A stretch of 6,398 bases of DNA. Source: a virus. Its lineage: Duplodnaviria > Heunggongvirae > Uroviricota > Caudoviricetes. Where the stretch lies: positions 1-6,398 of IMG/VR virus record IMGVR_UViG_3300023312_000117. The stretch is one strand, 5' to 3'. The notes below the pieces were generated by a model. That model had not been told where the DNA came from and did no database searches. It worked only from the letters and a program-made list of their open reading frames with translations. Shown one piece after another: positions 1 through 6,398 of the stretch; position 1 is the first letter of the stretch, and each line of letters opens with the position of its first letter. The translations under genes and the position numbers were made by a program.

Positions 1-177
1 ACGCTGACGCATCTGCATGTCAGTAATTGCCGCGTTCGCCAGCTTCAGTTCTCTGGCATTTTTGTCGCGCTGGGCTTTGTAGGTAATGGCGTTATCACGG
101 TAATGATTAACCGCCCATGACAGACAGACGATGATGCAGATAACCAGAGCGGAGATAATCGCGGTTAATCTGTTCAT
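1..177 (-). CDS. Rz: Rz i-spanin (inner-membrane spanin subunit); only the N-terminal 59 codons are in the window, the 3' end runs off the window start
   Basis: Minus-strand ATG at 177-175 overlaps the R stop (ATGA). Translation [59 protein letters not shown] is near-identical to lambda Rz as recalled, with a hydrophobic N-terminal anchor. The embedded Rz1 would lie beyond the window start. Confidence 0.82.
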
Positions 178-650
178 ACCTCAATCTCTCTGACCATTCC
201 GCCCGCTTCTTTGAATTTTGCAATCAGGCTGTCAGCCTTATGCTCGAACTGACCATAACCAGCGCCCGGAAGTGAAGCCCAGATATTGCTGCAACGGTCG
301 ATAGCCTGACGAATATCACCGCGATCAATCATCGGTAAAGCGCCACGCTCTTTAATCTGTTGCAGTGCCACAGCGTCCTGGCTTTTCGGAGAGAAGTCTT
401 TCAGGCCAAGCTGCTTGCGGTAAGCAACCCACCAGCGTGAAAGAAGTTGATAACGGCCTGCAGCTGTTGATTTGAGTTTCGGGTTTAGCGTGACAAGTTT
501 GCGAGGGTGATCGGAGTAATCAGTGAAGAGTTCTCCACCGACAATAACGTCATAACCGTGGTTACGTGTCGGTTGTCGCCCGTTATCCGTTCCCTCTGAC
601 CATGCCACCATATCAAGGAAAGCTTTACGCTGGGAATTTAGTACCTGCAT
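174..650 (-). CDS. R: Endolysin R, lambda-type lytic transglycosylase (158 aa)
   Basis: ORF 174..650(-) translates to [51 protein letters not shown]..., near-identical to lambda R as recalled, including the catalytic Glu in the WSEGTD motif. ATG at 650-648 is preceded by AAGGAG with a 6-nt spacer. Sits between holin and Rz. Confidence 0.9.
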
Positions 651-653
651 AAA

Positions 654-980
654 TTACTCCTTAGAGCCACCAAACTTGTTACCGATTACTCTCATTGCAG
701 CCCCACGAATAGCATCAACACCGATCAGCCCCACCCCACCACCAATGGCAACAGATAGTGATTTAGGCCATCCGACATACTCAAGAGCGGATGCAAAAGT
801 CAGCGTCAGAGCGCCACAGAGTAGAATTTCGAGTGTTTTTCGCTTCCAGCCGCCACCACCGCCAAAATAGGCAATACGTAAACCAGCCATAACAATCGAC
901 ATAATCACTGCGCCCAGCGGTGTGTCTCCACGCCACCAGCTCTGGACCAACTCCAGCCATGTATTTGGGTTATGAGGCAT
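654..980 (-). CDS. Putative holin (108 aa, about three predicted transmembrane segments, Gly-rich loops); not a lambda S homolog
   Basis: ORF immediately upstream of R on the same strand, with its TAA stop (656-654) inside the R Shine-Dalgarno. Three hydrophobic stretches (LGAVIMSIVMAGLRIAYF, LEILLCGALTLTFASALEYVGW, LSVAIGGGVGLIGVDAI) and a charged C-terminus fit a class I holin topology. Function is inferred from position and hydropathy only. Confidence 0.55.
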   Translation of the reverse strand: MPHNPNTWLELVQSWWRGDTPLGAVIMSIVMAGLRIAYFGGGGGWKRKTLEILLCGALTLTFASALEYVGWPKSLSVAIGGGVGLIGVDAIRGAAMRVIGNKFGGSKE

Positions 981-1120
981 TTGTAGTTATCTCTCACCTC
1001 GCTGATACAGCAGGTGCAAATTGAGGAAACATCATGTACCGCAAATCAGAAGCGGAAACGTCAAAGAAGCCGAGTCAATGGATAACTGCGGGATAGGCTA
1101 GGACCAAGGAATCCCCAGAC

Positions 1121-1154
1121 CCAGAAACGACAAAACCCGCTCGATGGCGGGTTT
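1121..1154 (-). terminator. Candidate intrinsic terminator on the minus strand (possible tR'-like late terminator)
   Basis: Perfect 8-bp inverted repeat AAACCCGC (1133-1140) / GCGGGTTT (1147-1154) with a 6-nt loop. On the minus strand the hairpin is followed by TTTTGTCGTTTC. On the plus strand the trailing sequence is not T-rich, so it is mainly unidirectional. Confidence 0.4.
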
Positions 1155-1199
1155 AAGCTGTGTGGCGAAGTGAGCACACTTAACAGATTACGATATTTT

Positions 1200-1259
1200 T
1201 TGCGTACGCGTTAGTGTTTTGATAGAATTTTCAGCCACATAAAAATTCATTCTTATAAT
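1200..1259 (+). promoter_or_regulatory. Putative sigma70-type promoter region for the plus-strand two-gene operon
   Basis: Candidate hexamers: TTGCGT (1200-1205), 17 bp, TAGAAT (1223-1228); also TTGATA (1219-1224) and a consensus TATAAT (1254-1259) 12 nt before the ATG. A weak SD-like GGGA (1262-1265) lies 6 nt before ATG 1272. Which hexamers are used cannot be decided from sequence. Confidence 0.25.
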
Positions 1260-1271
1260 TCGGGATATATA

Positions 1272-2447
1272 ATGGATATAACTTGTTTAGAATGTGGCAA
1301 TGTTCTTGACGACCCAACTGTAGCTTGCGATAAATGCGGTGCCACGCCTCATGTTGTAGTGCTGGGCAAACAATCGTACTTTCCTATTGGTGCTGTAACA
1401 GCAAATCTTGAAAAAAATGATTCAAGAGCATTTGATTATCGATTAGGTGAAGTTTGGGATCTAAAAAATGAAGTCACATCTGAATTCATAACCAGAATTG
1501 AGAAAAAATTTAGCCGAAAAAACAAATTTCATAACTTCCTAGACTCAGATCACAACCCTTCATCCATTCCTACGATCCTAAAAAAATACATTAATAAGAA
1601 TAATGAATTCATTGATTTATCTAGAGCTATAATAGAGAAGCTTAAACATAATGCTAATAACGAATCGAGAGTTGCCCAACTTCAGGGGGGGAGCGTTGTT
1701 TTCATCCACTATAAGTCTACCGAACCAGAGGATTTGGGGAAACTTCTAATCGTAATGGTTGATAAACAAAGCGCCTATGACTTTGATTCGGATAAGTTGA
1801 CCCCAACAAGATTAAATCCAATTAATACCGATGCCTTACGGCAGGCTGCGATGTTCGATTTAACTTTATTCGAAGCCAGTTATCCAGAAAACAAGGGTGA
1901 CTCATATGTACATTTCTTGCAAGGTAAATCTAAAAGCGATTTTTTCAAAGACTCATTAGGTTGCCGACATGATTCGGACAATAAAAGAAGCATTCAGCAA
2001 TTATTCAGTGCTATAGATATTTTTGCTAGTAAAAACTCACTCGGTCGTGTACTGCGTGATACTATTGACAATGAAGTTAAATCCTTACTGGAAAAAAAAT
2101 CAAAAGATAAACACGGAAATAAGTCCGTTAAGATAGAGGATATTTCAAAAATAATTGACTCATGCCTGACTGATTCACACAAATGTAAGGGAACGTTTGT
2201 CGATTTTGTTAATCTTAATGGTTTCCAGATTGACCCTCAATTTGAACCAACTCCTAAAGCAGCTGAAAGCGCGCTTACAATTGAAGTGGCAGATAACGAC
2301 AATAATTTTAAGTTGAAAATAATGCGTGGAGCTATTGGAGACGAAAAGTCAAATAAGCCTGTAATTCTCACTGACAACAAATGCGAAATTGTGATAAAAT
2401 TGAGTCAGGCAAATTATGATGAACTCAAAAGATATAGAGACAGCTAA
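1272..2447 (+). CDS. Gene A: zinc-ribbon plus NA37-family (YejK/NdpA-like nucleoid-associated protein) domain protein, 391 aa
   Basis: ATG start, long ORF in AT-rich DNA. N-terminus has a Cys4 zinc-ribbon pattern, CLECG...CDKCG (Cys 5, 8, 19, 22). The central region GGSVVFIHYKS...LLIVMVD...NPINTDALRQAAMFDLTLFE...YVHFLQGKSKSDFFKDSLG aligns by eye with E. coli YejK as recalled (GGFVLFCHYRY...LLVAVLS...HADIVARIDLTEWE...[22 protein letters not shown]). Confidence 0.75.
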   Translation: MDITCLECGNVLDDPTVACDKCGATPHVVVLGKQSYFPIGAVTANLEKNDSRAFDYRLGEVWDLKNEVTSEFITRIEKKFSRKNKFHNFLDSDHNPSSIPTILKKYINKNNEFIDLSRAIIEKLKHNANNESRVAQLQGGSVVFIHYKSTEPEDLGKLLIVMVDKQSAYDFDSDKLTPTRLNPINTDALRQAAMFDLTLFEASYPENKGDSYVHFLQGKSKSDFFKDSLGCRHDSDNKRSIQQLFSAIDIFASKNSLGRVLRDTIDNEVKSLLEKKSKDKHGNKSVKIEDISKIIDSCLTDSHKCKGTFVDFVNLNGFQIDPQFEPTPKAAESALTIEVADNDNNFKLKIMRGAIGDEKSNKPVILTDNKCEIVIKLSQANYDELKRYRDS

Positions 2448-2449
2448 TA

Positions 2450-3664
2450 ATGACAATTGCTGATGACTTATCAAGATTAGCGCAGATTATTAACGGAGCC
2501 TCAAGCAGAGTTGAGGGCTACTACACTGTCATAAGTCTTGAAGAAAGCATTGTTATTGTAAATAGTTCTGAAATAATTAGACTGTTACAATCTATAGGTT
2601 ATAAAAAGGCAACAACCTGCATCGAAAATAATGAAATTTGGCTAGATCGCCAAGCTTCATCTTGGGATGATGCTATAATTTATGAGAATGTTGAGTCTTT
2701 TTGGTCTAGAGTAAACACCCAAAACGCTCTTCCGAAAAATTATATCATCGGAACGCCGTTAATACTCCCTACTTCTAAGAATGAAAGCATCGAAAAAATC
2801 CATATTTTCTTTATGTGGAAAGATATCCTTTCATTAATTGCTGATCATCATAACAGTGACTGCTCTGTCTTATTTTTCACCAATGAAGACAAAAGTTATA
2901 CAGTCGAACTCACGCATTTTTTACAATATAGCGAGATTAATCGCTTATCGAACTCGTCTCTTAAATATGAAATTATAAAGGAGCTTCTCGACACAATAAA
3001 AATCAATGATTTACACAAAAGCGAGCGCAAGCTCGTTATACGCTCAGCCATAAACGAAGTATTTAAAGCAAATGGTACGTTCAATTTCTTTGACTTGCTT
3101 AACTCTACTGAACTCGTCAGGAAAAAATATGATGAACTATATGAGATTTACACAAAGAGGTTTTCTGTAAATAAAATTCTTAACGAACTCGATGAGAAAA
3201 ATCTTGAGTTCACGAGTAAAATTAACGAATTCATATCATCTAATCAGACAAAAGCATTGACTATTCCCGGTGCATTAATAGCAGCTGGTGGCTTAGTGAA
3301 GGCTAATGAAACAACCGAAGCAATATTGATTATCGCAGGACTTTGGATGATAAAAAAAGTCAATTACATTTCTATTGAGATATTCAATGAAACATTCGAC
3401 AACTTACGTTCTCGAGTGGAGTCCGCTTTCGATAAGTATTTAAAGTTTGAAGAAAATAAAGAAATCAAAGATAATGCAGATAGTATTAAGAGTAGCATTA
3501 CAGGTTTGATTGATAAAGCTAAAAAAAGGATGAGAACTGTTAAATATCTCGCATCAGCCATGTTTTATGGAGGCCTTATTTACGTTGGATATAAACAGTT
3601 CCCAGTCTTTTTTGAAAAATCGGCAGTAAATCTATTTTATTTTTTATGCCATACTATAAGCTAA
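2450..3664 (+). CDS. Gene B: uncharacterised 404-aa protein with C-terminal hydrophobic (putative membrane-associating) segments; candidate effector partner of gene A
   Basis: ATG at 2450 lies 2 nt after the gene A stop (TAATAATG), implying an operon. Same AT-rich composition. Hydrophobic stretches near the C-terminus: ALTIPGALIAAGGLV, AILIIAGLWMI and YLASAMFYGGLIYVGY. No catalytic motif recognised. The 3' end overlaps the 3' end of Q convergently by 21 bp. Confidence 0.7.
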   Translation: MTIADDLSRLAQIINGASSRVEGYYTVISLEESIVIVNSSEIIRLLQSIGYKKATTCIENNEIWLDRQASSWDDAIIYENVESFWSRVNTQNALPKNYIIGTPLILPTSKNESIEKIHIFFMWKDILSLIADHHNSDCSVLFFTNEDKSYTVELTHFLQYSEINRLSNSSLKYEIIKELLDTIKINDLHKSERKLVIRSAINEVFKANGTFNFFDLLNSTELVRKKYDELYEIYTKRFSVNKILNELDEKNLEFTSKINEFISSNQTKALTIPGALIAAGGLVKANETTEAILIIAGLWMIKKVNYISIEIFNETFDNLRSRVESAFDKYLKFEENKEIKDNADSIKSSITGLIDKAKKRMRTVKYLASAMFYGGLIYVGYKQFPVFFEKSAVNLFYFLCHTIS

Positions 3665-4000
3665 CATTGCTAAACAGCCGTCAACAAACCCCATTGCAGT
3701 TTGCAGTTCCTTCCTAATTGTGCCATCAGAGCATTTTCTCTTCTTCGCAATAGTGCGTAATGAGATACCGATAACAAAGTGGGCGATGATGAGCTCATAT
3801 TCCTCTGGTTTATACCTTCTCAACCGAGCCACACAACTGTCTATCATGATGCCTTCGTCATCATCACACTGAATCCGTGACTTTTTGCCATGAGGTAAAA
3901 GTCCCTTGAAACCAGCCGCTATCGGCTGCCAGTCCACTCCGCTATTGTCTGAAGCAGCCCAAGCTCCCCAACGATCCATTACTTCATACATATCACGCAT
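3644..4000 (-). CDS. quuD: Late-gene antiterminator Q-like protein (QuuD/phage 82-type Q family), 118 aa from ATG 4000
   Basis: Translation MRDMYEVMDRWGAWAASDNSGVDWQPIAAGFKGLLPHGKKSRIQCDDDEG...CSDGTIRKELQTAMGFVDG matches the DLP12 QuuD-type Q pattern as recalled. ATG 4000-3998 has GGAG 7 nt upstream; the longer TTG start at 4054 in the ORF track is less likely. Lies between rusA/ylcG and the lysis genes, the expected Q position. Confidence 0.78.
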   Translation of the reverse strand: MRDMYEVMDRWGAWAASDNSGVDWQPIAAGFKGLLPHGKKSRIQCDDDEGIMIDSCVARLRRYKPEEYELIIAHFVIGISLRTIAKKRKCSDGTIRKELQTAMGFVDGCLAMLAYSMA

Positions 4001-4084
4001 CAACTTTCTCCACAAAATCAGGCCAGAACGCCAATTACAAGCAAAAATCAACAAAACAGTATTAGTTGATTGTTATCTCTGACT

Positions 4085-4225
4085 TCATACTCCTGCTCCT
4101 GTCAGGGTTTTGGCGTAATTCTTCAGTATTCGGTAATCGGTCAAAACAGAACCGGGGAAACGATATAAGCGCAGACGCCCCCAGCGGTGGCGAAGAAATT
4201 CTGCCATATTAAACTCAAACATCAT
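4085..4225 (-). CDS. ylcG: YlcG-like small protein (46 aa, DUF3950 family)
   Basis: Hand translation of the minus strand gives [49 protein letters not shown] at 4225-4223 overlaps the rusA stop (ATGA). Not in the ORF track, presumably below its length cutoff. Matches the DLP12 gene order rusA-ylcG-quuD. Confidence 0.6.
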
Positions 4226-4584
4226 TCATTCCCCATTTCGGTGATGGTCAGTTCCAGCCTCCCACCTTTGGTAACAGGCATCTTCACAACGCGGTAATCA
4301 ACGACCTGAGCATCATCCAGCCAGAAACCTGCTTTAGTGAGTGCGTCAAAAGCGGCTTTTTGCAGATTATCCAGGTCACGGCGACGGCGATCCGGCATGT
4401 GGCACTCAATGCGGATTTTCACAGGCATAGCTAGGCCGATATCCAGCATTGCGTTTTTAATGATTCGGGCGACGTTATCGCGGTATGCCTGCCCCTCTGC
4501 GCTGACGTGCGTGCGCCCGCGATTATGGCGGTAATAGCGATTATTGCTCGGAGGCCAGGGTAATGTGATGCTGTAGGTATTCAC
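4222..4584 (-). CDS. rusA: RusA Holliday-junction resolvase (120 aa)
   Basis: Translation [120 protein letters not shown] matches E. coli K-12 DLP12 RusA as recalled. GTG start at 4584 overlaps the ybcO stop. Confidence 0.92.
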
Positions 4585-4871
4585 GCCTTAATAACCCCCT
4601 CTTTCAGCCACATAACCTGTGTTCTCGCCATACCTTCCAGCGCGCATTCTTTTGCATATGCAGCATCGACAAAATGTGTGCGGCGGTCGATTTCGTCGTG
4701 GCAGGCAGAACATGCAATGGTGGCAATCAGGTCTGGCGGTTTGATACCGGTACCGCACAATCCAGCCAGCCGGATATGTGCCAGTACAGACGTTTCAGAA
4801 TTGCCATTACATACGCCAGGGATTCTTACCTGGCATTCCCGACCACGCGCTGCTTTTCTCAAATCAGCCAT
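4581..4871 (-). CDS. ybcO: YbcO-like protein (DUF1364; putative nuclease), 96 aa from ATG 4871
   Basis: Translation from the internal [99 protein letters not shown], matches DLP12 YbcO as recalled. GGAGG lies upstream of ATG 4871; the TTG at 4910 is an unlikely extension. Confidence 0.82.
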
Positions 4872-5034
4872 GATTCCTCCTTGCTGCCAGTCGCAACCAT
4901 TTTTTATCAACCAGGCTAGCGGTATATCCGAGCAGTGTTGGTATTTCGGATGGCTTCGGCTCAGGCTTACGCTTACGACGATTTGATACTCTGTAGATGT
5001 GTCCGTTCATGACACGAATAAGCGGTGTAGCCAT
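4864..5034 (-). CDS. ninE: NinE-like small protein (56 aa)
   Basis: Hand translation gives [59 protein letters not shown] at 5034-5032 overlaps the ninB stop (TAATG) and the 3' end overlaps the ybcO start. Position between ninB and ybcO matches DLP12. Below the ORF-track length cutoff. Confidence 0.75.
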   Translation of the reverse strand: MATPLIRVMNGHIYRVSNRRKRKPEPKPSEIPTLLGYTASLVDKKWLRLAARRNHG

Positions 5035-5489
5035 TACGCCTCCTGCTTGTCACGGAGCAGCTGGAACTCGCAGCTCTGCGGAATAGTCAGGTGGCAGCCA
5101 ATATTCACCGCCCAGGCTTCAACCTTACACAGGAAGACATACATCTCTCCGGTATCAAGATCGGAGGTATGGCGTAACGACTGGATAGTGGTGATATCAC
5201 CGGTTACGACATCAACCAGGTCTTTGGTTTCATAACCGAGATATGTGTGTTTGAGAGCATCTTTTACCCAAGCTGGAGTGGCGAACGTTTTACCCCTGTT
5301 GATGAGGTATTCACTGATTTCGCTGTACCACATGTGGCTGAGTGCATTCTGGGAAAGACTGCGTTTCTCACGCCACGGTTTAAGCACCATGCGAAAGCAT
5401 TTGCCCTCCTCCAGATAAGGCTGGATCTGCCGACCGATAGCGGTGAAGTTACCGCGATGTAATTTGATGCCATCTTGTGGGAGATTCAC
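5034..5489 (-). CDS. ninB: NinB-family recombination protein (YbcN-like), 151 aa
   Basis: Translation [62 protein letters not shown]... matches DLP12 YbcN / lambda NinB family as recalled. GTG start at 5489 is preceded by GGAGGTGAAGC. Confidence 0.86.
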
Positions 5490-5685
5490 GCTTCACCTCC
5501 GCAGAGGTCAAACGCTGGATGCAAAAAATCGCAGGTGCATCTCTGCATCTGTGAAGGGAGAAGAGAGTTTGGATTGTATGTGCGCATAAACGTCCCCGTT
5601 TAGCGCAGAAGTCACCGGAGTTGTTCAGGCTCCGATGACATGATTATGGCAAAATGATTATGTAAAATCAAAAGCCAAAAAACAA

Positions 5686-6375
5686 TTATGGTTTATTTTC
5701 TAGCTCTGATTTTTTGAAAGCTTCTATCAGACGATTAGCATCTTCTGTACCACCAGGAAGCACGTTTGATTTTTTAAGAATATACGGTGGGAACTTTGTG
5801 GTTAAATATTCATGCTTAAACCATCTACGAAACTCTGACAATGCAGAATCAGGATAGGCATTAATGATCTGAGGATTGGAACTTGCCTGAAGAAAATCTT
5901 CAGGGTAATAATGCTCACAGTCTACTCTTTCTCCAAATTCTGTTGCTAACCCCTTTGCTTTCCAGTGACGCGCCCAGCAAGAACCAACACTGCCATCAGG
6001 TACGGTATGCTGATTAATCGCTAATCCAGCATTGATGAGATCTACCATCATACCTGCAATTTCATTAAATATAATGAAATACCCATCAGGTATGGTTCCC
6101 TTATCTTTTAATAAAGATACTCTGTCATGGTAATGCCTCCACGGGTCCTCCGGTTGATATTTTAGCGCCTCGTATATAAATGTCTTGAGGCCTTTTTTAG
6201 CAAGCTCTCTGTAAGATCTAATTGCAGTCTCACTTTCTGCTTGTTTTGCTTCAAAGGCATAGTATTCAAGTATAGCCATGCATACAACATCTGGATAAGC
6301 ATGGTACTCAACACCATTTCGAATTATTGGTATATAAAGTTTTTCATTAGACTGGCCCCCTGAATCTCCAGACAA
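5686..6375 (-). CDS. Uncharacterised AT-rich ORF (229 codons if started at TTG 6375); family not recognised
   Basis: Long minus-strand ORF upstream of ninB with GC visibly lower than the nin genes (spot counts ~27-40% on 60-nt lines). The ORF opens at TTG (6375-6373) directly after an in-frame TGA; the first in-frame ATG is at codon 33 (6279) and has no obvious SD. The start codon is therefore uncertain. Confidence 0.5.
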   Translation of the reverse strand: MSGDSGGQSNEKLYIPIIRNGVEYHAYPDVVCMAILEYYAFEAKQAESETAIRSYRELAKKGLKTFIYEALKYQPEDPWRHYHDRVSLLKDKGTIPDGYFIIFNEIAGMMVDLINAGLAINQHTVPDGSVGSCWARHWKAKGLATEFGERVDCEHYYPEDFLQASSNPQIINAYPDSALSEFRRWFKHEYLTTKFPPYILKKSNVLPGGTEDANRLIEAFKKSELENKP

Positions 6376-6380
6376 CCAAT

Positions 6381-6398
6381 ATCACTTAAATAAGTGAT
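6381..6398. promoter_or_regulatory. 18-bp perfect palindrome ATCACTTA-AA-TAAGTGAT; candidate operator or protein-binding site at the window edge
   Basis: Positions 6381-6398 read ATCACTTAAATAAGTGAT, identical to its reverse complement. It lies immediately 5' of the start of the 229-codon ORF. The ATCAC half-site resembles lambdoid repressor operator half-sites. Truncated by the window end, so context is unknown. Confidence 0.3.

Follow-up and report, generated by a model that had tools for sequence, protein, structure and literature searches.

The anti-phage system DS-1 in a DLP12-like prophage: a YejK-like protein with a predicted zinc ribbon and its putative membrane effector

The DNA considered here (the window) is a stretch of 6,398 nucleotides (nt) from a tailed virus of the class Caudoviricetes, positions 1 to 6,398 of the IMG/VR record IMGVR_UViG_3300023312_000117. 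Two neighboring open reading frames (ORFs) on its plus strand, at 1272-2447 and 2450-3664, encode, with near certainty on the sequence matches given below, DS-1A and DS-1B, which together make up the anti-phage system DS-1. DS-1A, 391 residues long with an ATG start and a TAA stop, combines a predicted zinc ribbon with a YejK-like (NA37) protein. DS-1B, its 404-residue partner and putative membrane effector, begins 2 nt past the DS-1A stop codon and is translationally coupled to it. DS-1 is a self-contained, horizontally mobile two-gene anti-phage system, and because it has already been validated and published (2025-2026), the finding is correct but not new. What, then, does the window add? 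Three things are new here. (i) In all 21 testable loci, DS-1A and DS-1B lie next to each other. (ii) The zinc ribbon appears, from the homologs compared, to be an optional, clade-specific module. (iii) The cassette is placed, as an insert of 35% G+C (guanine plus cytosine), in a DLP12-like prophage, in the slot that separates the antiterminator Q from the holin; BstA is encoded by the same prophage.

Identification of the cassette as DS-1

Both proteins score above the cut-offs of their NCBIfam equivalog models, DS-1A with 451.4 bits against NF053868 (DS1_1_antiphage, nucleoid-associated anti-phage protein; cut-off, 330) and DS-1B with 375.2 bits against NF053869 (DS1_2_antiphage; cut-off, 315), and the genes lie adjacent in the A-then-B order. 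RefSeq DNA of Escherichia coli that is 100% identical to the cassette carries the annotations WP_000355468.1 (DS-1A) and WP_000150292.1 (DS-1B). These two accessions constitute transcription unit D390, named DS-1, in the DefensePredictor study of DeWeirdt, Mahoney, and Laub (Science 2026; PMC13092281; preprint January 2025), where the unit is located at NZ_RRVY01000002.1 220602-222994, a length of 2393 bp. The DS-1A translation from the window matches exactly the 391-residue sequence in Table S8 of that paper (PMC13092281), while DS-1B is identified with the published protein because the two share both the RefSeq accession and the 404-residue length. The value of the window as a discovery is small: the same two proteins had been predicted, cloned, and shown to defend (2025 preprint, 2026 Science), and they had been named by NCBI. 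PADLOC, in contrast, matched the cassette neither to Kiwa nor to any other known system, PADLOC-DB (2023) being without a DS-1 model. The preliminary description of this DNA, made from its sequence, had missed both the membrane-protein partner DS-1B and the prior description of DS-1.

As for expression signals, a consensus scan gave a candidate sigma-70 promoter, TTGATA-16-AAAAAT, at 1219-1246 (+), with 9 of 12 matches, and a GGGA motif resembling a Shine-Dalgarno sequence can be read after it at 1262-1265 (+). Matches to the sigma-70 consensus were no more common than in shuffled sequence (12 found versus 9.8 expected).

DS-1A, a YejK-like protein

What kind of protein is DS-1A? The Pfam family NA37 (PF04245) matches its residues 64-376 (profile positions 27-318 of 325; E value, 1.2e-23) with 84.5 bits against a cut-off of 24.6, and a published HHpred search placed NA37 across residues 42-382 (PMC13092281, in the supplementary tables only). 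An AlphaFold2 model, built on 38 homologs for the cluster representative, whose difference from the window protein is I102N, reached a mean predicted local distance difference test (pLDDT) score of 86.5. Strands and helices follow one another in the model as in the published YejK topology, giving a two-domain YejK fold with both dimerization arms present. The preliminary description had read the gene as an unusual phage-borne fusion of a Cys4 zinc ribbon to a YejK/NdpA-like (NA37) domain. That architecture is borne out by the ORF, the CxxC-X10-CxxC pattern discussed below, and the NA37 score, and the fold is confirmed by the Pfam match and the predicted structure. The similarity to NA37 had been thought to be confined to residues ~130-240, with flanks resembling nothing recognizable; it turns out to span nearly the whole protein after the ribbon.

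The YejK-like N-domain of DS-1A (residues ~30-232; 1359-1967, +) includes a beta-hairpin arm at residues 169-181 and, at residues 218-226, the loop G-[KR]-S-x-x-x-F-F-K. The C-domain (residues ~233-391; 1968-2444, +) contains C-terminal beta-strands and a helix, at residues 336-390 of the model, which in YejK form the stable dimer interface. YejK itself acts as a dimeric clamp on DNA, to which it binds non-specifically, and its arms, the N-domain hairpin and the C-terminal strands plus helix, are the dimer interfaces and close a DNA-binding ring of 30 Å. The loop is the most conserved of the family, and within it K219 of DS-1A aligns with R173 of YejK. A basic residue, K or R, stands at position 219 in 36 of the 38 homologs, and K226, which like K221 lies near K219, is kept in 37 of them.

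DS-1A is a paralog of YejK rather than an ortholog, since it fails the YejK equivalog NF001557 with 81.4 bits against a cut-off of 341. Its own clade is small, for a full HMMER scan of 1.84 billion cluster representatives returned only 39 proteins at E <= 1e-30. No DS-1 ortholog was found in 50,697 deposited phage genomes. Distant NA37 proteins, with ~20% identity to DS-1A, occur in Pseudomonas temperate phages, including F116, H66, LKA5, phiC725A, and others.

The zinc ribbon of DS-1A

The N-terminal Cys4 zinc-ribbon module of DS-1A occupies residues 1-28 (1272-1355, +), with Cys5, Cys8, Cys19, and Cys22 (codons at 1284, 1293, 1326, and 1335) forming CxxC-X10-CxxC. Generic zinc-ribbon hidden Markov models stay below threshold on DS-1A (Zn_Ribbon_1, 13.4 bits versus 25; DZR, 12.6 versus 27.3). 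In the DS-1 paper the ribbon appears solely as an HHpred match in a supplementary table, to a NinF-like Zn-beta-ribbon over residues 3-26 with a probability of 86% (PMC13092281).

How widespread is this module? All four Cys residues are kept in 19 of the 38 aligned homologs, down to ~36% identity, and the residues around them vary. These 19 comprise every Enterobacterales homolog (down to 42% identity) and two more distant proteins; the homologs from Pseudomonas and other clades have instead an acidic N-terminal tail without Cys. Conservation of the Cys pattern, on which the preliminary description had staked its reading, therefore holds throughout the Enterobacterales and is limited to part of the family. 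A strict N-terminal CxxC-X(6-20)-CxxC is present in 13 of the 40 best representatives of the DS-1A clade, with variants in 3 more. In a set of 105 NA37 representatives farther from DS-1A, the motif was confined to two short fragments resembling DS-1A N termini and was found in no full-length protein. This distribution argues that the predicted ribbon is real, under selection, and clade-specific among NA37 proteins, and that within the clade it is optional, being carried by about 40% of lineages and by all Enterobacterales sampled. The ribbon is an accessory N-terminal module, dispensable for the family overall, and it probably tunes DNA binding, partner binding, or trigger specificity.

DS-1B and the two-gene unit

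The model of DS-1B reached a pLDDT of 84.5, the modeled representative differing from the window protein by A392E. An acidic alpha/beta N-domain (residues 1-165 in the model; 2450-2944, +) has a net charge of -9 and a pI of 4.8. In enterobacterial homologs the net charge of this domain runs from -4 to -17, and in distant ones it is weaker, from +1 to -5. The middle of the modeled protein consists of a helical segment and a 49-residue stalk helix. Hydropathy and the helices of the model then delimit a predicted membrane region (3254-3661, +) with hydrophobic helices at residues 269-283, 291-301, and 366-381, arranged with a helical hairpin between hydrophobic helices and a hydrophobic tail. Just ahead of this region lies the most conserved motif of the DS-1B family, RFSVNK...TSKINE...QTKALTIPGALIA, made up of invariant or near-invariant columns.

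Do the two genes always travel together? DS-1B homologs are found in the same taxa as DS-1A homologs and often on the same contigs. The DS-1A profile recovered 22 loci, one of them cut by the end of its contig, and in each of the other 21 a DS-1B homolog lies immediately downstream on the same strand. The paired loci span the gamma-proteobacteria, one beta-proteobacterium (Vogesella), and Pseudomonas loci whose DS-1A homologs are without the ribbon. No third conserved gene was found around the pair in the 20 loci searched. The neighborhoods, typical of mobile islands, are enriched in integrases, transposases, cytosine methylases, HicB, toxin-antitoxin genes, UmuDC-type genes, and an nSTAND nucleoside triphosphatase. 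A complete DS-1A/DS-1B pair, 48% identical to that of E. coli, was also seen on JAATEZ010000277.1, a 2641-bp contig of a metagenome-assembled genome labeled 'Lactobacillales'; a proteobacterial contig binned wrongly is a likelier explanation than the presence of the pair in a Gram-positive bacterium.

Phage defense and a proposed mechanism

The defense phenotype of DS-1 comes from the literature. The system was tested in E. coli MG1655, on a low-copy plasmid that carried it under its native promoter, and "a YejK nucleoid-associated domain" figures among the domains that the paper counts as newly validated in defense (PMC13092281). According to the D390 entries of Table S7, the reduction in efficiency of plating (-log EOP) was 7.6 for Bas1, which formed no plaques, 2.7 for Bas26, 1.7 for both Bas3 and T3, 1.0 for T5, and 0.9 for T7, which formed small plaques; T4 has no row among all 26 mentions of D390 in that table (PMC13092281). 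Of these, Bas1 and Bas3 belong to the T1-like Drexlerviridae (Bas01-13), and Bas26 to the T5-like Markadamsvirinae. T7 and T3 degrade host DNA. T1 and T5 are cited as doing so in a preprint of April 2026 on the PANGU systems (10.64898/2026.04.06.716658).

That preprint reports that operons pairing a YejK-like protein with an effector act as infection sensors. In type I PANGU the effector is a toxSAS, and the clamp, which binds long DNA non-specifically, resides on the nucleoid until T4 degrades the chromosome and frees it. The freed clamp then binds the acidic, DNA-mimicking domain of the effector, which is thereby activated, and a clamp deficient in DNA binding renders the pair toxic (10.64898/2026.04.06.716658). 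In type II PANGU the effector is "a transmembrane protein effector" with an acidic DNA-mimic domain at its N terminus and a transmembrane domain at its C terminus. In the example from uropathogenic E. coli, both genes are required and the phenotype is abortive; the clamp tagged with green fluorescent protein leaves the nucleoid upon T4 infection, and the acidic domain on its own has a dissociation constant of 19 nM for the clamp (10.64898/2026.04.06.716658). The suggestion in the preliminary description that a divergent YejK-like copy had been repurposed as a DNA-binding or sensing module gains support both from the identification of the protein as DS-1A and from these YejK-like infection sensors.

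How might DS-1 work? DS-1 likewise consists of a gene for a YejK-like nucleoid-associated protein in a two-gene operon with a predicted transmembrane effector, and because this is exactly the type II PANGU architecture, we adopt the type II model for it. A dimer of DS-1A would form a YejK-type ring clamp that sits non-specifically on chromosomal DNA. An infecting phage that degrades or disrupts the host nucleoid would release the clamp, and free DS-1A would exchange DNA for the acidic, cytoplasmic N-domain of DS-1B. Through its three-helix membrane region, DS-1B may then compromise the inner membrane, so that the infected cell would stop supporting phage growth, an abortive infection. Taken as a whole, this sequence of clamp release, engagement of DS-1B, and membrane damage seems to explain DS-1 best, and we give it a probability of about 0.55. 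The figure is no higher because the likeness of DS-1 to the tested type II PANGU is one of architecture, and because the phage spectra are nearly opposite: PANGU-Ecu, the PANGU tested, blocks T4 and not T1 or T5 (10.64898/2026.04.06.716658), whereas the phages restricted by DS-1 include T1-like and T5-like ones, T4 having no entry.

Beyond these two, further points weigh against the clamp-release model. R276, R280, and K284 of the YejK C-domain, which are needed for DNA binding, align with P328, E332, and T336 of DS-1A. The fold of DS-1B gave no significant structural match, and its membrane-disrupting role is a putative one that we infer from its architecture only. The PANGU preprint itself states that the activation of the type II effector is unknown (10.64898/2026.04.06.716658). 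Finally, the DS-1 paper made no DS-1 mutants and leaves the mechanism undiscussed (PMC13092281).

The difference in phage range may reflect expression systems or levels that differed, or it may reflect a different trigger. One candidate for the latter is the Cys4 module. It could, though we consider it unlikely, let DS-1A proteins of the zinc-ribbon clade respond directly to a trigger of their own, for instance a phage protein or genome ends as they enter the cell, rather than only report passively their release from DNA. Such a trigger would explain why DS-1 hits T1-, T5-, and T7-like phages, as opposed to the tested type II PANGU, which hits T4 and not T1 or T5. If it exists, DS-1 would represent a mechanistically distinct branch of clamp-based immunity.

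Alternative explanations

Might DS-1 act on the incoming phage genome itself? In this scenario, DS-1B would mark or sense the site of injection, and DS-1A would clamp the entering linear genome and block its replication or transcription, without abortive infection and by a logic like that of Kiwa. Kiwa is composed of the membrane protein KwaA and the DNA-binding protein KwaB. The models of DS-1 likewise pair a membrane protein with a DNA clamp, and DNA ends or a phage protein could be recognized with the help of the zinc ribbon. The spectrum is unlike that of the genome-damage-sensing PANGU systems; Bas1 formed no plaques at all, a reduction of at least 7.6 logs, and the restricted phages listed for D390 in Table S7, which has no D390 rows for T4 or RB69, are all without heavily modified DNA (PMC13092281). 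The absence of a PADLOC match to Kiwa or another known system speaks against this scenario, as does the tested type II PANGU, which is abortive and whose clamp is on the nucleoid before infection (10.64898/2026.04.06.716658). We regard direct clamping as possible but doubtful. Actual homology of DS-1 to KwaA and KwaB was considered and rejected, there being neither a PADLOC match nor a fold match.

Clamp release should also be set against a toxin-antitoxin arrangement, in which DS-1B would be a membrane toxin held inactive by DS-1A and let loose by host shut-off or by degradation of DS-1A by the phage. Membrane-toxin abortive systems are common, and tight coupling and strict co-inheritance of the DS-1 genes are what such a pair would display, yet the order and sizes of these genes are unlike those of the small type II toxin-antitoxin pairs. 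In type II PANGU, moreover, the genes are not toxic singly, and the nucleoid-associated protein is an activator, not an inhibitor (10.64898/2026.04.06.716658), which makes a toxin-antitoxin pair an improbable account of DS-1.

Two further ideas have very little in their favor. A prophage nucleoid protein could regulate the prophage itself, by silencing or control of lysogeny as NdpA2 does for the PAPI-1 island, with DS-1B serving in superinfection exclusion; mobile elements do carry NA37 regulators, by the part of that literature drawn on here (PMC8565334), and the F116-like phages of Pseudomonas have their distant NA37 genes, but protection of MG1655 was conferred by DS-1 on a plasmid, away from its prophage (PMC13092281), and the pair occurs in many non-prophage mobile contexts, so that this is a very improbable explanation. 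Equally remote is a topoisomerase guard, in which DS-1A would contact gyrase or topoisomerase IV and report phage interference with them: the fold common to DS-1A and YejK invites the idea, and the preliminary description had drawn such a link for YejK, but no support for it emerged from the present data, and the PANGU preprint accounts for the class without topoisomerases (10.64898/2026.04.06.716658).

Genomic setting

Where does the cassette reside? The DS-1 paper gives no genomic slot (PMC13092281). In the window, the cassette sits in the late region of a lambdoid prophage, between Q and the holin and antisense to the late genes. To its left are a lysozyme gene and the first late lysis gene, a lambda-family holin (654-980, -; annotated as such, and Pfam Phage_holin_3_1 at an E value of 5.7e-25). 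To its right are Q, RusA, YbcO, and a NinB-like gene, and all of these flanking genes are on the minus strand. The G+C content is 0.347 across 1201-3664 and about 0.495 in both flanks, in keeping with the AT-rich, prophage-borne copy that had been described from the sequence.

The right boundary of the insert is Q (3644-4054, -; annotated as 3644-4000), identified by its annotation and Pfam Phage_antitermQ (E value, 4.5e-47), with the step in G+C content marking the border. DS-1B and Q converge, sharing 21 nt at their 3' ends (3644-3664), and similarity to the quuD region of DLP12 stops inside Q, near window position 3953. At least 80% of 3665-4584 is shared by 35 genomes, compared with 106 for the cassette region. 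The overlap, the break in similarity, and the difference in genome counts thus point to mosaic joints around the insert. The cassette itself is present at 99% identity or more in 106 of 5,426 complete E. coli genomes. In at least two genomes, NZ_OZ547033.1 and NZ_CP097170.1, the DS-1 region is split by an insertion sequence, IS1 or IS3, and these copies are natural knock-outs; in NZ_OZ547033.1 a 'nucleoid-associated protein' is annotated twice at the split region.

In the DLP12 of K-12-type E. coli, the same slot holds the porin gene nmpC and IS5 (locus 1606-4665), in the same orientation as DS-1 and antisense to the late genes. The Q-holin slot is a swappable cargo site, and the cassette is a 35% G+C insert in it, in an E. 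coli prophage that is DLP12-like and also carries BstA. The bstA gene, annotated as a 'hypothetical protein', occupies 5686-6398 (-) with a G+C content of 0.386 and runs past the end of the window. It was recognized with PADLOC model PDLC02356, at an E value of 3.6e-121 on the full 309-residue protein from the matching RefSeq locus (10686-11615, -), and it has no Pfam match. Because BstA is a prophage abortive-infection defense, the prophage carries at least two defense systems.

The interval between the cassette and the holin (981-1271) contains a strong terminator-like hairpin at 1133-1154 (-), AAACCCGC...GCGGGTTT followed by a T-run, on the strand of the late genes. It may be tR', the terminator that Q antiterminates. 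A search around the insert for the late promoter pR' gave no convincing minus-strand site, only this hairpin, and neither Rfam nor a tRNA scan found anything in the window.

Comparison with known systems

With DS-1 as published (D390), the cassette agrees in its proteins, in gene order, and in the 2393-bp length of the transcription unit, and the genes show no difference. E. coli YejK (PDB 9be2) and DS-1A have in common the two-domain fold and both dimerization arms, and the basic loop of the N-domain is partly conserved. DS-1A differs from YejK in having only ~20% identity to it, in its additional N-terminal Cys4 module, in not keeping the DNA-contact residues of the C-domain, and in having its gene on a mobile element together with an obligate partner. 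Kiwa and DS-1 share the logic of a membrane protein working with a DNA-binding protein; the resemblance is one of analogy only, the gene order being reversed and the domains unrelated.

A further close counterpart is type II PANGU (Pag2A/Pag2B). Both it and DS-1 are bicistronic, both occur in E. coli, and in both a YejK-like gene is followed by one for an effector with an acidic N-domain and a C-terminal transmembrane region. The acidic N-domain of DS-1B is consistent with the 'DMK' domain of Pag2B, to which it is likened by description and charge. A zinc ribbon sets DS-1A apart, as the PANGU preprint mentions none. The remaining interest of DS-1 lies in this clade-specific predicted ribbon, in the difference in phage range, and in the step from DNA clamp to active membrane protein. 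If the proposed mechanism holds, the window provides a case of nucleoid-clamp immunity that occurs naturally in a prophage and whose phage range is the reverse of that of the characterized type II system.

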